From: Candidatus Zixiibacteriota bacterium
Lineage (GTDB): Bacteria > Zixibacteria > MSB-5A5 > GN15 > JAAZOE01
Reading direction: 5' to 3'
Length of the DNA: 42,265 bases
Assembly (NCBI GenBank): GCA_043819555.1
Contig: JBDREQ010000011.1
Coordinates: forward strand, 1-42,265
In this document: piece by piece, positions 643 to 42,265 of the stretch
Position numbering within the stretch: the first letter of the stretch is position 1
Layout of the letters: every line of letters starts with the position of its first letter
Program-made: the position numbers and the translations under genes
The notes under the pieces: generated by a model
Database searches by the model: none
What the model saw: the letters and a program-made list of their open reading frames with translations, nothing else
What the model was told of the DNA's origin: nothing

Positions 643-757
643 AATCACCACCAAACCCGTAGCGAATGATCAAAAATGACAGAACAAAGCCAATTTGCTA
701 TAAGCAAATTGTACACATGACAATACAGGGAATTTTGTGAAAAATAATGTGGATAAT
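643..757 (-). repeat. Dispersed scaffolded intergenic element, copy C (DnaA box 756-748; invariant 19-mer 695-677)
   Basis: The reverse complement reads TTATCCACATTATTTTTCACAAAATTCCCTGTATT...GCTTATAGCAAATTGGCTTTGTTCTGTCATTTTT, colinear with 22965-23048 and 41630-41714. Confidence 0.85.
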
Positions 758-795
758 TTATTGAATAGATTAAAAAAAACGAGGCAAAACAACTA

Positions 796-7318: not shown

Positions 7319-10252
7319 GTGACCCACAGGACCATTTCAATTATCATTTTACTCTTTTCCGCATTTGTTCTAAGCTCCTGTACTAGTATATATTTTAATA
7401 CTTTTCACAACGTTCGCAAAAACTTCAATGACGCCGAAAAAACGCGAAAAAAAGATGGACGGGATAACGCGAAGGGCGGTGAAATTCAGAAATACAATAT
7501 AGCAATTACAAAAGCTTCAAAGGTTCTGGAAAAACACCCCACCTCAAGCTGGGTCGATGACGCGCTATATATTATTGGAACAGCCTATTACTATTTGGGC
7601 GAATATTCGAATTCTTCAAGGAAATTCAAGGAACTTTTGGCAAATTATCCTGAATCGGAGTTTATACCGCGCTCTCGAGTTCTATTGGCCAAGGCTAAAT
7701 TAAAGCTAAAAGAGGAGACCGAGGCAATTGTCATATTTGAAGAGATATTTGCAAAGAGTAAAGATAAGAAAATGAAGGCCGATGCCGCCCGGGCTTTGGG
7801 TGAATATTACTTTGAAGCGCAGGACTATGAAAACGCCAATCTGTATTTTCAGTCGCTAATCGATTCACTGGGAGAAGATAAGGACAAGTTGCGTGCCCTT
7901 ATATATGTGGGCAATGGATATTTCGAAAGGTACAATATCAAACCGGCCCGGGAAAATTATAACAAGGCATTAAATTATAGCCCGGATACTCTGGACTATT
8001 ATCGTTTACAATTCAAACTCGCCGAATGTGATTATTTCCTGTTTAACATACGGGGCGGACTGCAAACGCTGCAATTGTTGGCAGATAACGAACTTTATTA
8101 TGATTCTTTGGCTCCGATACGATTAAAAATGGCAGAGGGATATGAATGGGATGGAGACCTTGAATCGGCTATTAATACTTATGAACAGGTTTCGCTTGAA
8201 AATCCGGGCAAAGAGGCATCGGCGGTCGCGTATTATGAATTGGCGCTGATTTATCAATATGACTTTGAGGATTTGATCAAGGCCCGCTCCTATTTTAATA
8301 GCGCCCGTGAAGAAAGACGACAATCATCGGTTTATGAAGATGCCACTAAGCGCGCATCCCAGTTAGCTTTGCTCGAAGAGTATATGCAGATGGGCGGTGA
8401 GGAGAAAGACCAAAATATTTCTCTTGATGATAATTCATCAGAAATGGAATTATTAAGCGAAAACCAGTTTAACCTGGGCGAGTTGTATTATTATGATCTT
8501 GATAAACAGGATTCGGCTATAAGCGCCTTTCAAGCTTTGCTGCAGCGATTCCCAAATTCGCGCCATGCTCCGCGAGCGTTAATTGCTATGTCATACATCT
8601 ATGAAAATGATTTATTTGATACTACCGGAGCCGACAGCCTGTTGCGCCTTGTTTTAAGCGATTACGCTCATTTTGATGAAGCTGAAATAGTCATAGATAA
8701 ATTAGGCTTGGCGGGAACAGTTGCCGACACGGGATATGCCTTAGTAATTTATCGCAAAGCTGAGAATTTTCTTGAGGAATTTCAAAATCTTGACAAAGAA
8801 TGGTATTTCCCATTTGAAGGAAGGATTACTCCGCCAATCGACACAACCAGTTCAGTAGATACTTCAAAAATGGATGGTGAAGAAATAACACCATCAGATA
8901 CTTTAACCGAAGATGGAGATATTGTCGAAAGTGAAACGACCGATACGACTTCATCCGTTTTTGTGCCGGATACAAAATTGTTCGATTCGACAGTTCAAAC
9001 TGGTGAAGCGATCAGGCTAACGGATTTGATGCGACAATCCAAAGGCGAGACAACTGAAAGCAAAGATTCAAAAATCGATCCAAATGATAGTCTTTCCATA
9101 CCGGATTCATTACCGTTTCCTGAACCACAACCAGGCAGAGATATGCAGGATAGTCTTATTGTACAGGATTCATTGCCACTATCTAAGCTACCGGGACAAC
9201 TTAACAATCAGACTGGAAAATCATTGCCAAAAGACGATCGAGATGATTTTGACCGATTACGAGGTCGCAATTTGGCGCAAACTGGGAAAGACAGTTTATT
9301 GAAATCAACTGACAACCTATCCGCCGAAAAACCTGTTTTAGAAATAGACAAGACACCTGCAGATAGTCTTAAGATTCAGGGCACCGATGATTTAATTTCC
9401 GATAGTCTGGACGCGTCAAAGTTAAATATAATCGATGCCGATAGTACAGCCTTTATTAATTTCAATGAGATGTCTGAAAAAGTAGATTCGTTCGGAGTGT
9501 TTGGCACCAGCGATCAGCCTCTGGATACGGTACCGCGGGATAAAGCTTATTACCATGCCCTCGGCTTGATTGATTCGGCCAGATTTTACTACCAGTATGT
9601 CGTTGACAGTTTTCCTCAATCCGAGCATAGCATTCAAGCCCGGTATTTACTTCTATGGACGTATGATAATTACTTCGCTCCCGGTGACTCACTGCTGATT
9701 GATTTATATTCTGCCTTTGTCGATTCCTTCCCTCAATCGGAATTTACGAAGTTTATCGGTTCGGAATACAGGATCAATCCATCGCCGGAAATCGCGCGGC
9801 AAATTAAGAAAAGAGATAAACCGATCGAGAATCCGGTCAGTCCGGAAGATGCTCCATCTGGAGATGAACAACCATTCGCGTCCGAGGAACCCGCTGACAC
9901 GCTATCTCCGGAACTAAAGGCAATCTCAAAATTCATTACCGATGCGGACGGCAAACAATTGCCTCCGGCGAATGAATACTTTCTGGCGGAAAACTATGCC
10001 TTTGAGTATCCTCTTGAGGCGGTAGCGGCGCGGATAGAGGATAATCTGTATTTTCAAATCAGAATCGATTTTACCGGCAAGGTGGAAGAATTGGTCCTGA
10101 TGAATCCTACATCATCGCCTGAGCTTAATGAACGAATTTCGGAAACCGTAAAAAATACATTATTCAATAATGGCCTTATACCACCTGAATTGTATGACAC
10201 ATGGTTTTATTATAAGCGGGAGGTCCGCATACCTAACGAGTTCAAGCAATGA
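7319..10252 (+). CDS. Large TPR-repeat lipoprotein (PorW/SprE- or BamD-like N-terminus) with D/S/T-rich linker and C-terminal TonB-C-like domain
   Basis: Lipobox VLSSC; YFNTFHN..AITKASKVLEKHPTSSWVDDALYIIG TPR pattern; acidic low-complexity middle; C-terminal YPLEAVAARIEDNLYFQIRIDFTGKVEELVLMNPTSSPELNERISETVK. Confidence 0.8.
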   Translation: MTHRTISIIILLFSAFVLSSCTSIYFNTFHNVRKNFNDAEKTRKKDGRDNAKGGEIQKYNIAITKASKVLEKHPTSSWVDDALYIIGTAYYYLGEYSNSSRKFKELLANYPESEFIPRSRVLLAKAKLKLKEETEAIVIFEEIFAKSKDKKMKADAARALGEYYFEAQDYENANLYFQSLIDSLGEDKDKLRALIYVGNGYFERYNIKPARENYNKALNYSPDTLDYYRLQFKLAECDYFLFNIRGGLQTLQLLADNELYYDSLAPIRLKMAEGYEWDGDLESAINTYEQVSLENPGKEASAVAYYELALIYQYDFEDLIKARSYFNSAREERRQSSVYEDATKRASQLALLEEYMQMGGEEKDQNISLDDNSSEMELLSENQFNLGELYYYDLDKQDSAISAFQALLQRFPNSRHAPRALIAMSYIYENDLFDTTGADSLLRLVLSDYAHFDEAEIVIDKLGLAGTVADTGYALVIYRKAENFLEEFQNLDKEWYFPFEGRITPPIDTTSSVDTSKMDGEEITPSDTLTEDGDIVESETTDTTSSVFVPDTKLFDSTVQTGEAIRLTDLMRQSKGETTESKDSKIDPNDSLSIPDSLPFPEPQPGRDMQDSLIVQDSLPLSKLPGQLNNQTGKSLPKDDRDDFDRLRGRNLAQTGKDSLLKSTDNLSAEKPVLEIDKTPADSLKIQGTDDLISDSLDASKLNIIDADSTAFINFNEMSEKVDSFGVFGTSDQPLDTVPRDKAYYHALGLIDSARFYYQYVVDSFPQSEHSIQARYLLLWTYDNYFAPGDSLLIDLYSAFVDSFPQSEFTKFIGSEYRINPSPEIARQIKKRDKPIENPVSPEDAPSGDEQPFASEEPADTLSPELKAISKFITDADGKQLPPANEYFLAENYAFEYPLEAVAARIEDNLYFQIRIDFTGKVEELVLMNPTSSPELNERISETVKNTLFNNGLIPPELYDTWFYYKREVRIPNEFKQ

Positions 10253-22857: not shown

Positions 22858-23078
22858 TGATATCCATCCGTTTTGAATTTTTTTGCTTACTGTATGAATG
22901 TGCGAATAATACGCATGAGAGGGCAATTAAAAAAATTATCACAGATGTATAGTTTACTTTGAAGTTATCCACATTTAAATTTACAAAATCCCCTGTAATG
23001 CGATGTCTCTTTATTGCTTACAACGAATTGGCTTTGTTCTGTCAATTTTAATTTTGTGACATCGAATCGGTGGTGATT

Positions 23079-23104
23079 CCGGGCAGATGTGGACATCTGC
23101 CCGG
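23079..23104. repeat. REP-like hairpin CCGGGCAGATGT-GG-ACATCTGCCCGG
   Basis: Perfect 12-bp inverted repeat; variants at 379-407 and 23462-23488. Confidence 0.8.
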
Positions 23105-23224
23105 CACGACCACTCGAGAGTCGTTTTTCACAAGCCAACACATGAAAATTGGGTTTGTTTTGTCAGAATAACGTTTTTGGTCATATCAAATCGATGGTGA
23201 TTACGGGCAGGCAATGGCCCCGCC

Positions 23225-23251
23225 TGTTATTCCAGCGAAAGCTGGAATCCA
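23225..23251. repeat. REP-like half element TGTTATTCCAGC-GAAA-GCTGGAATCCA
   Basis: Short version of the TGTCATTCCC..GGGAATCCA family with a GAAA tetraloop. Confidence 0.7.
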
Positions 23252-23665
23252 TCCCGGTCATTATATCTTTATACAACATCATACATATGGGGAAAATTTC
23301 GGAAAATACACCTGATTGGTTGGGAAAATGTGGATGCGCAATGCGTAAAGCCATCTGTTTTGTATAGCAAATTCAGCAGGTCATATCCAAAAATCCCCAG
23401 CCAGCGGGTGGGCTCCAGCCCGACTGTTGCCGCGCACATAAAAATTTTGAGAATGATTTATGGGCAGACGAGGACGTCTGCCGGGCACATAAATAATATG
23501 ATTGTTCAAATTGTAAAGAAAAATCATTAACCTTTCATGAACTTTTCATTCACAAAATGGTTATATCAATAATCATCGGAGAGGCTTGCCTTTTTGGAGA
23601 AAGTTGCGTATTTAGGCTGAGAAAAATGAACTTAAATTTGATTTATGCACGGCAGGAAAGTGATT

Positions 23666-41529: not shown

Positions 41530-41577
41530 AGTGGCTCAATATGGGAGATTGACGTTTGAAAAACAAGCCTTCGCTTG

Positions 41578-41627
41578 TGTCATTCCCGAGAGCGTTGCCC
41601 GAAGGGCGAAGCGAGCCGAGAATCCAG
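41578..41627. repeat. REP-like half element, TGTCATTCCCGAGAGCG family
   Basis: TGTCATTCCCGAGAGCGTTGCCCGAAGGGCGAAGCGAGCCGAGAATCCAG, homologous to 520-572. Confidence 0.85.
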
Positions 41628-41629
41628 AG

Positions 41630-42062
41630 TTATCCACATTATTTTTCATAAAAATCCGTTTAATGCGATGTTCTTCTATAGGTTACAGTAAATTGGCTTT
41701 GTTCTGTCATTTTTCAGGCGAAGGCCTGTTTTCGGCTGTCGCGCAGTAGACCTGCTATCGGTTCATCGCTTCTCCAAGGAAGCGACAGGACCTGTGCGAA
41801 ACTTCTAAAATGGGTTTGTTTGCTCAGATTAACGTTTTTGGTCATATCAAATCGGTGTTAAATGTGGCAAAAGCCACTTATTGGCTGTCGCGCAGATGAC
41901 TTGGATTTTTCCGGTAGGGGTCCTCGCGAGCGACCTGGTAATTGCTATTGCGGGCTCGTCGCGACGAGCCCCTACGGTTCCGTATATCTTTTTTTATATA
42001 ATACATACTACTAAACGTTGAATATTTTTGAAACAATGGGAGATTGGTTGGGTAATTGCGGA
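41630..42062 (+). repeat. Dispersed scaffolded intergenic element, copy B
   Basis: TTATCCACA 41630; box1 41691-41709; box2 AAATGGGTTTGTTTGCTCAGATTAACGTTTTTGGTCATATCAAATCG from 41808; end motif GATTGGTTGGG 42042-42052. Colinear with copy A. Confidence 0.88.
41914..41975. repeat. Inverted pair of GTAG-type REPs (REPIN-like)
   Basis: GTAGGGGTCCTCGCGAGCGACC ... GGGCTCGTCGCGACGAGCCCCTAC, with GTAG/CTAC feet. Confidence 0.75.
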
Positions 42063-42106
42063 CTCAATTTTTTCTGAAGCAAACCGTCGTCAGCCAATGT
42101 ATCCTG

Positions 42107-42158
42107 TGTCATTCCCGAGAGCGAAATCTCATTAGGAGTGAAGCGAGTCGGGAATCCA
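42107..42158. repeat. REP-like half element, TGTCATTCCCGAGAGCG family
   Basis: TGTCATTCCCGAGAGCGAAATCTC..GGAGTGAAGCGAGTCGGGAATCCA, homologous to 520-571. Confidence 0.85.
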
Positions 42159-42225
42159 TACAGCATCAATAAAAGCTGTTGCTGTTATCATATAATTGGA
42201 GTATTATTGAACGAATAGGCGGGAA

Positions 42226-42254
42226 CCCACCGTTCCGCTGCGCGGAACAATGGG
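42226..42254. repeat. REP-like hairpin at window end
   Basis: CCCACCGTTCCGC-TGC-GCGGAACAATGGG imperfect inverted repeat; single copy in window. Confidence 0.5.
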
Positions 42255-42265
42255 CCACCGGTCTA

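Follow-up and report, generated by a model that had tools for sequence, protein, structure and literature searches.

A 42,265-nt stretch of Candidatus Zixiibacteriota DNA, the whole of which is called the window here, carries three copies of a unit in which fixed sequence boxes are separated by exchangeable, hairpin-bearing stretches. What is this scaffold, where does it come from and how does it spread? As judged from sequence comparison, the window copies are gene-less, internally deleted derivatives of a single-gene cassette encoded on the strand opposite to the one on which an earlier note read the unit. The scaffold consists of the two ends of that cassette, its TTATCCACA/box1 side corresponding to the 3' end of the gene and its distal TATATCTTT..GATTGGTTGGG part to the leader. 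On balance, and with some reserve, we favour the reading that the copies are non-autonomous, deleted derivatives of a multi-copy cassette whose protein recognises the box and whose units are copied or lost at box junctions.

The window copies and their parent gene cassette

The window is contig C11 of genome G000 (3.35-Mb assembly, 79 contigs, 43.6% G+C). Its three copies, A, B and C, each carry TTATCCACA, a perfect match to the DnaA box that appears here as the conserved terminal motif of the unit and starts at 22965 (+), 41630 (+) and 756 (-), respectively. The three copies described in the earlier note are therefore borne out at their places, the third starting at 756 rather than 757. The box AATTGGCTTTGTTCTGTCA (box1; starts at 23026, 41691 and 695) begins exactly 61 nt after the start of TTATCCACA in all three copies, as had been claimed, and a second box (box2) follows box1 at a measured distance of 121 nt in copy A (23147) and 117 nt in copy B (~41808), again in agreement with the note. 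The 10-bp inverted repeat ATCCACATTT/AAATGTGGAT said to bound copy A is present, but the other copies lack it in alignments read by eye, so that it is not a feature of the family.

Specifically, we scanned 41 genomes of G000 and its relatives for the unit pattern TTATCCACA-N50-54-box, with the pattern read backwards as the control. When up to four substitutions are allowed in the box, the pattern occurs 24 times in G000, far beyond chance. The exact degenerate pattern is found 23 times in G000, 44 times in its same-genus sister species (G001), and 4 times and twice in two other genera of the same bacterial family (G009 and G010), with 0 for the control, and is absent from the other 37 relatives searched. 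TTATCCACA itself occurs at 61 sites in G000, 24 of which lie inside units. The motif is limited to these four genomes (three genera) among the 41 searched, and it is not found in the corresponding module of three homologous loci from other lineages that were read (L097, L106 and L113). The 24 units of G000 range from 115 to 630 nt, contain no conserved open reading frame (ORF) and are flanked by no common protein.

Two box variants divide the copies. In G000, 17 copies have the GGCTTTGTTCTGTC type seen in the window and seven "compact" copies of about 250 nt have GGGTTCGTTTTGTC, the variant of all 44 listed copies of G001. In the compact copies, the box runs straight into a conserved distal module (..ATGCGGATGATTTCnGAAA..GGATTTGATGG.AAATTG..ATGCTC), which is the TATATCTTT..GATTGGTTGGG..TGTGGA module of the window, and the unit terminates in a palindromic module that consists of GGGAACCCACC, a variable hairpin and GGGCCACCGGT. 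In 62 copies drawn from four genomes (three genera), there is little or no variation in the box or the terminal motif, whereas the intervening spacers are scrambled; G001 additionally contains groups, or subfamilies, of near-identical copies. The genome-wide copies support the view of a unit that is dispersed and lacks a gene, its boxes being fixed and its contents exchangeable. A small peptide gene in the distal module was considered and rejected: an M-x-x-I-S-E-N.. frame is present in several copies, but its start, frame and length are not kept and the indels are not multiples of three. An origin from tmRNA-derived sites was likewise rejected, the tmRNA 3' end being unlike the modules when compared by eye.

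The parent of the unit is found beside one unit copy of the sister species, where a 199-codon ORF on the opposite strand (G001 L046:1537-2136(-)) encodes a protein that we designate P0001. The last codons of P0001 traverse the reverse complement of box1 (..GQNEPNSPQ..), and past its stop codon comes ATTACAGGGAATTTT-N11-TGTGGATAACT; this corresponds to the 5' module of the window copies when read in the opposite direction, the final nine bases being TTATCCACA. In G000, an intact homologue (C7:44628-45212) has the box2 module after its stop, and a frameshifted homologue (C53:38420-39005) ends in ..QQNEPNSPQ..TGA AATGTGGATAACT. Read in reverse complement, the distal module and the palindromic module together make up the region upstream of the C53 gene as far as its Shine-Dalgarno sequence and ATG, and the leader module precedes the Shine-Dalgarno sequence and ATG at C53, C7 and L046. 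Additionally, in blastn comparisons with these three full-length cassettes, the window copies match the 3' ends at 69-85% over 65-90 nt. In particular, the sense strand of copy A (297-383) matches positions 745-832 of the L046 cassette (72% over 89 nt, E 5e-6), and its box2 module matches the sequence directly past the stop of the C7 gene (84% over 68 nt). The match between the leader module of copy A and the C7 leader is short (19 nt at 95%). Taken together, the passage of the last codons through box1 and the matches at the 3' end and leader show the scaffold to be the two ends of a gene cassette, whose coding part the window copies have lost.

An intact cassette runs from the leader through a gene of about 200 codons to head-to-tail box units directly past the stop codon. 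Each box unit consists of AAAC(G/A)AA(C/G)CCAAT followed by variable sequence, so that box1 and box2 are two successive units, and the end of the cassette in this bacterial family is ..GGAATTTT-N11-TGTGGATAACT, the "DnaA box" in reverse. The leader is flanked, in this genus, by a palindromic module similar to repetitive extragenic palindromic (REP) sequences. Full-length gene copies, the autonomous partner looked for in the earlier note, are present in both G000 (two to three, one of them frameshifted) and G001. The direction of transcription that the note suggested, towards the DnaA box, agrees with the coding strand of the parent gene, and its remark that no ORF is shared holds inside the window, although the scaffold nevertheless derives from a gene. 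Directly upstream of the frameshifted gene, C53:39000-39510 (L018) contains four tandem units of 118-130 nt, each comprising the REP-like module, the leader and Shine-Dalgarno/ATG.

P0001 has no match in Pfam, NCBIfam, PHROGs or PADLOC (a single PADLOC row at E 0.023 was disregarded), and PDB sequence profiles also give none. An AlphaFold2 model built from a 25-sequence alignment consists entirely of long helices (mean predicted local distance difference test score of 82.8). A Foldseek search with this model returns no match at E<=0.001, and VIA-align returns generic helical matches alone, the best Z of 8.4 lying within the range common for helical models. In the ESM Atlas, only unnamed clusters are hit. 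The family is nevertheless large, with 38,311 representative clusters (50% identity) at E<=0.001 and 21,188 at E<=1e-10 in a profile search, and its N-terminal motif N..NA.KSTGP....GK is nearly invariant.

A box that follows the gene across phyla

More than 573 coding stretches homologous to this gene turned up in a scan of species genomes, and 80 loci were kept as a cross-phylum set. Their labels include Zixibacteria, Ignavibacteria, Planctomycetota, Verrucomicrobiota, Acidobacteriota, Chloroflexi, Alphaproteobacteria, Poribacteria, Nitrospinota, Omnitrophica and others. No neighbouring gene recurs in these 80 loci, as every recurring ORF cluster overlaps the gene itself. A probe for the box (AAACGAACCCAAT with at most two mismatches), applied to about 1.1 kb after codon 150 and to 1.1 kb upstream, finds it on the coding strand downstream in 52 of the 80 loci and upstream in one, and the reversed control in four and five, respectively. 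The first box starts at a median of 7 nt past the first in-frame stop (at +5 to +36 in 22 loci), and several boxes often follow the gene at intervals of 50-115 nt. In the protein alignment, the C-terminal tails KTNPI, KRTQF/EQTQF and NEPNS represent the three reading frames of AAAACGAACCCAATT. The box is therefore read in different frames among homologues and is conserved as DNA rather than as protein, and it is retained across phyla where protein identity is only 27-50%.

The box is also far more numerous than the gene. A degenerate form, AAACRAASCCAAW, occurs 1,143, 385, 22, 48 and 28 times in five of the genomes that contribute to this set (control 1, 39, 1, 2 and 1), in which the gene has 18, 2, 2, 2 and 8 matches, respectively; the genome with 1,143 boxes belongs to Pirellulales. 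In the Pirellulales genome G041, arrays are built from head-to-tail units, in which AAACAAAGCCAATT is followed by 35-170 nt of variable sequence and ..CGTGCG, with constant junctions, and the variable contents reappear in different arrays. This is the arrangement of fixed boxes and exchangeable cassettes at a much larger scale. These data show that the box is a DNA-level element tied to this gene across phyla and amplified in arrays. Among the relatives of G000, 27 of 41 have the gene, and at least nine boxes are present in 15 of the 27 gene-bearing genomes versus one of the 14 gene-less ones, a comparison whose threshold was set post hoc, whose genomes are not independent and whose pattern misses ..CCCATT variants. 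Searches of the literature with box strings and peptide motifs return primers or nothing, and those with words for Planctomycetes repeats return nothing relevant; as these searches covered open-access literature, with ISfinder outside, we provisionally regard the element as undescribed in print.

Contents, placement and turnover of the units

The modules of the window copies are listed in Table 1. Copy C begins 40 nt past the stop of a Sir2-family gene (796-1527, - strand), whereas copy A precedes a beta-CASP metallo-hydrolase gene and copy B an alpha/beta-hydrolase gene.

Table 1. Modules of copies A, B and C, with positions in the window and strands as assigned relative to the parent cassette
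Feature	Position	Strand	Content
Copy A, 3'-end module of parent cassette	22963..23081	-	terminal motif AGTTATCCACA (TTATCCACA at 22965-22973), variable spacer, box1 (23026-23044; reverse complement TGACAGAACAAAGCCAATT), GGTGGTGATTCC
Copy A, cassette 1 core	23079..23104	.	palindrome CCGGGCAGATGTGGACATCTGCCCGG of a dispersed family
Copy A, box2 module (AATTGGGTTTGTTTTGTCAGAATAACGTTTTTGGTCATATCAAATCGATGGTGATTAC)	23147..23204	-	second, variant copy of the cassette 3'-end unit
Copy A, cassette 2	23205..23261	.	two short hairpins, GGGCAGGC..GCCTG and TTCCAGC..GCTGGAA
Copy A, leader-derived module	23262..23339	-	TATATCTTT..ATACATA..ATTTCGGAAAAT..GATTGGTTGGGAAAATGTGGATGC; antisense of the region upstream of the parent start codon
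Copy B, 3'-end module	41628..41714	-	TTATCCACA at 41630-41638, box1 at 41691-41709
Copy B, cassette 1	41715..41806	.	terminator-like hairpin CAGGCGAAGGCCTGTTTT, then GGCTGTCGCG and a second hairpin; recurrent unit
Copy B, box2 module	41808..41865	-	matches the C7 gene's 3' flank (85% over 65 nt)
Copy B, cassette 2	41866..41982	.	contains palindrome GCGGGCTCGTCGCGACGAGCCC; 20 blastn hits, 16 pattern matches
Copy B, leader-derived module	41983..42062	-	assigned from sequence, by blastn against full-length cassettes
REP-like module, GGGAACCCACC-hairpin-GGGCCACCGGT	42221..42262	+	closes the copy B unit at the window end; 38 copies in G000
Copy C, 3'-end module alone	643..759	+	box1 at 677-695; TTATCCACA at 748-756 on the - strand

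Most inter-box stretches of copies A and B hold palindromes or units that recur in G000, with 14-34 pattern matches when the matches on both strands are summed. The hairpin cassettes described as unrelated in the earlier note are thus mostly members of small dispersed palindrome families. Specifically, the GGCAGA-N4-12-TCTGCC pattern of cassette 1 in copy A has 34 matches over both strands on 10 contigs. The core of the box2 module of copy A has 16, again over both strands. The first cassette of copy B has a near-identical match in the G000 copy at C20:110264 and in many G001 copies. The TTCCAGC..GCTGGAA hairpin is confined to the copy A locus, its two matches being the two strands of one site. 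On the strand on which the earlier note read the unit, several cassette palindromes, and the box itself, are followed by T-runs. Palindromic repeats do lie between the boxes, as the idea of captured REP-derived cassettes had it; an active capture would be a further step of interpretation. Further palindrome families (GGGCAGACGAGGACGTCTGCCC and GTCATTCCCGAGAGCG..CGGGAATCC) surround the window copies at 23463-23490, 41568-41625, 42105-42160 and 520-600, each family with two dozen or more pattern matches in G000.

The GGGAACCCACC..GGGCCACCGGT module also follows a truncated Y1-transposase-like gene (C25:2-337). This fragment has no Pfam match of its own, and it matches a G000 ORF that is recognised by Pfam Y1_Tnp (38% over 61 aa, E 1e-12, BLASTP). 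Elsewhere in G000, two intact Y1_Tnp genes resembling REP-associated tyrosine transposases (RAYTs), at C73:85500-86140 and C3:61990-62640, have their own, different palindromes, GTAGGGAAGGAGCC..GGCTCCTGCC and GTAGGTCGAAACC..GGTTTCGAC. At C4:5845-6095, C55:32536-32795 and C31 ~51450-51730, units of about 250 nt between inverted GGGAACCCACC modules contain a promoter-like TTGACA-N17-TATACT site together with the first codons of a Y1-transposase-like gene fused to its last ones, and they look like internally deleted transposase relics.

Repeats of this kind also lie at assembly ends. Several copies are no more than ~650 nt away from a contig end, and the window breaks off within the REP-like module next to copy B. 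About 140 nt of window positions 42105-42265 (REP, spacer and the GGGAACCCACC..GGGCCACCGGT module) recur, by eye, on the opposite strand at the end of the 8.1-kb contig C2 (~7990-8121), whose sequence continues past the last base of the window. The assembly probably breaks inside this terminal repeat, and C11 may join C2.

Where the copies sit differs between G000 and G041. With neighbour classes assigned by eye from the ORF table, 12 of the 24 G000 copies begin 2-362 nt past the stop of a gene on the strand of the earlier note's reading, thereby facing a convergent gene, six (copies A and B included) lie upstream of a gene co-oriented with the coding strand of the cassette, five are ambiguous and one is in tandem with another copy. 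In G041, where gene calls are based on G+C content at third codon positions, 16 of the 21 arrays with a callable neighbour are co-oriented with the downstream gene (binomial P ~0.013), and one of the five exceptions looks co-oriented when read by hand. These arrays end 18-230 nt before the stop-to-stop frame of the downstream ORF. No common function links the genes that follow the arrays (SAICAR synthetase, sulfatase, HtrA, sigma factor, reverse transcriptase and others); the array directly ahead of the reverse-transcriptase (RVT_1) gene (L184:127-1587, G041:C45) has two boxes.

Turnover was followed at five loci compared between G000 and G001. At C3:55387, the unit is present behind a gene in both species, and in G001 a further whole unit is inserted precisely past the T-run downstream of box1. 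At the locus of copy C, both species have the unit beside a Sir2-family gene that is 85% identical, with a GGCTTTGTTCTGTC box in G000 and a GGGTTCGTTTTGTC box in G001, while of the unit at the C21 locus only the leader and palindrome part is present in G001. The sites of copies A and B have other content in G001, a different gene and a tRNA gene, respectively. Because whole units differ between orthologous loci, boxes stay invariant amid scrambled spacers and G001 holds near-identical groups, passive decay is disfavoured, and we favour ongoing copying or homogenisation dependent on the boxes. In a separate observation, a 1.2-kb stretch with a membrane-protein-like ORF lies between the Sir2-family gene and the unit in G001 (L181, G001:C28:103780-105100), bracketed by a ~100-nt duplication of the 3' end of that gene.

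Spread of the unit, alternatives and related elements

We propose that the box would be the recognition site of the cassette's own protein and that box-bounded units may be copied or lost whole at box junctions, the whole being a selfish system of the REP/RAYT kind, but with another protein at its core. Copies without the gene would then persist where they are harmless, mostly behind gene ends in G000 and mostly in leaders, oriented with the downstream gene, in the Pirellulales genome. Several points weigh against this reading. Both transposition as the route by which the unit spreads and, purely so, the binding of the box by the protein are steps that we infer, and the predicted structure has no enzyme-like fold. 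The left end of the unit bears no relation to its right end, there are no conserved terminal inverted repeats, and no target-site duplication is seen by eye at three compact copies (C3:55387, C24:53882 and C76:23004). Leader homology between the window copies and the full-length genes is weaker than that of the 3' ends, spanning 17-89 nt, and the G000 assembly contains no intact gene with its dominant box variant GGCTTTGTTCTGTC. In addition, the gene-less relative G012 still has 12 boxes, two of the five orthologous comparisons (copies A and B) differ in gene content and carry no information, and the orientation bias of the G041 arrays would also fit a role in RNA.

Indeed, the boxes could act in RNA, the arrays being parts of leaders or 3' untranslated regions, the helical protein an RNA-binding regulator of stability, antitermination or translation at AAACGAACCCAAU; copies would then spread by ordinary duplication, with mobility secondary. 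We judge this unlikely, yet it has points in its favour: the co-orientation of 16 of the 21 G041 arrays at a short distance from the downstream frame, the place of the box directly past the stop codon of its own gene, and a hairpin across the box that is paired in 79% of cells, versus 26-36% when the partners are slid, and includes one covarying pair (GC 37, AU 16, GU 7). That pair, however, splits two subfamilies and may reflect a single event, the genes downstream in G041 share no function, and in G000 twice as many copies face a convergent gene (12 of 24) as lie upstream of a co-oriented one (6). RNAalifold, run on the coding strand of the parent gene alone, finds no consensus structure among the 62 copies, and a candidate TGTAA/TTACA hairpin was rejected, as its 53.8% of paired cells equals that of shuffles. 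A much less probable version is that of the earlier note, which saw a structured non-coding RNA or mobile unit transcribed towards a functional DnaA box and actively capturing REP cassettes. Its box order and spacing are real, and its direction agrees with the strand of the parent gene. Against it, Rfam searches find nothing at the gathering score within the window, nothing on 10 related loci at E<=1 and a single unrelated match, to Acido-Lenti-1, on 20 loci from other phyla; with no fold on the strand tested either, the structured RNA finds no support. Scans for sigma70 promoters and simple terminators yield no more sites than shuffles, and the promoter scan misses the TATGAT/TATTAT "-10" that the note had pointed out. 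The confinement of TTATCCACA to four of 41 genomes, and its absence from L097, L106 and L113, also weigh against this version. Readings of the boxes as sigma54, sigma28 or Bacteroidetes-type promoters were rejected by eye, their spacing or key bases being unfit. The Acido-Lenti-1 RNA (RF01687, 40.5 bits, gathering 37) lies at L135:87-135 on a Pirellulales contig, ~620 nt upstream of the homologous gene.

Passive debris offers the opposite explanation, in which the copies are decayed duplicates of a once multi-copy gene, peppered by REP insertions, with no present activity and no role for the box. The scarcity of full-length genes in G000, the age of two copies, old enough to be common to the sister species, and the origin of most cassettes in other repeat families would all fit. 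We nevertheless hold it to be improbable, as the boxes and terminal motif are near-invariant over 62 copies amid scrambled spacers, the box is kept across phyla at 27-50% protein identity, orthologous copies have species-specific box variants, genomes carry up to 1,143 boxes, and near-identical clusters occur in G001. At the other extreme stands a wider reading, which we regard as possible though doubtful: an undescribed cross-phylum system of solitary helical proteins (the 38,311 clusters), each tied to a nearly invariant 13-nt box at its stop codon, through which it would build and reshuffle head-to-tail cassette arrays. With up to ~1,100 boxes per genome, such arrays occupy leaders and the ends of genes. 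The system would amount to a new type of machinery for site-specific cassettes or mobile DNA, or perhaps to a leader code of protein and RNA, without the transposase, recombinase or Cas families of the four libraries scanned.

The reading of the copies as deleted derivatives of a box-recognising cassette finds a close parallel in the REP/REPIN elements and their RAYT (Y1) transposases, a subject of Nunvar et al. 2010 (PMC2817692) and Bertels & Rainey 2011 (PMC3116915). As in REP/RAYT systems generally, one gene is accompanied on its flanks by a short repeat of its own, which is dispersed at 10 to more than 1,000 times the copy number of the gene, occupies intergenic positions, has genome-specific variants and co-occurs with the gene across genomes. 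Unlike a REP, which is a palindrome of 20-40 nt, the box is not palindromic (the cassettes and the GGGAACCCACC..GGGCCACCGGT module are), its units stand head-to-tail rather than in inverted pairs, and one 13-mer is kept across phyla. The protein is all-helical in its predicted structure with no HUH/Y1 match, and the Y1_Tnp genes elsewhere in G000 have repeats of their own. Mosaic intergenic repeats, such as the bacterial interspersed mosaic elements (BIMEs) of E. coli and the pneumococcal BOX element (boxA-boxBn-boxC), share the fixed boxes in modular order, the variable internal modules, the absence of a gene and the tens to hundreds of intergenic sites. In contrast to these, the outer modules here demonstrably come from either end of a protein-coding cassette, and many phyla share the box. 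BIMEs are also named in PMC2817692.

Like miniature inverted-repeat transposable elements, the subject of two reviews (PMC3184786 and PMC10969869), the units are short, non-coding, multi-copy derivatives that keep the ends of a gene-bearing parent and form near-identical subfamilies, but they show no conserved terminal inverted repeats and, by eye at the three compact copies, no target-site duplications, and the parent is no recognised insertion sequence or transposase. They differ from the palindrome-associated transposable elements (PATEs) derived from IS200/IS605 in having no TnpA(Y1)/TnpB partner and no conserved end hairpins that we could find. Integron cassette arrays, and the clusters of attC sites lacking integrases (CALINs), likewise have a gene followed by a conserved junction site and co-oriented arrays, many of them far from the enzyme gene. 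Here, however, there is no integrase and, by eye rather than with an attC model, no attC-like bulged hairpin, and the units measure 35-170 nt and are mostly non-coding. Finally, CRISPR arrays and the guide arrays of TIGR-Tas also set short constant repeats and variable stretches beside a protein gene, but here the repeats are degenerate, the spacers recur, and the 80 loci contain no cas-like, Nop-like or other recurrent neighbour.

If the link between protein and box holds, an unnamed protein family that equals many well-known ones in size would gain a testable partner, namely a 13-nt site beside its own gene. The same link would account for a large share of the intergenic "junk" repeats in Planctomycetota, Verrucomicrobiota, Acidobacteriota, Zixibacteria and other lineages, whose boxes yield the spurious ORF tails KTNPI, KRTQF and NEPNS.

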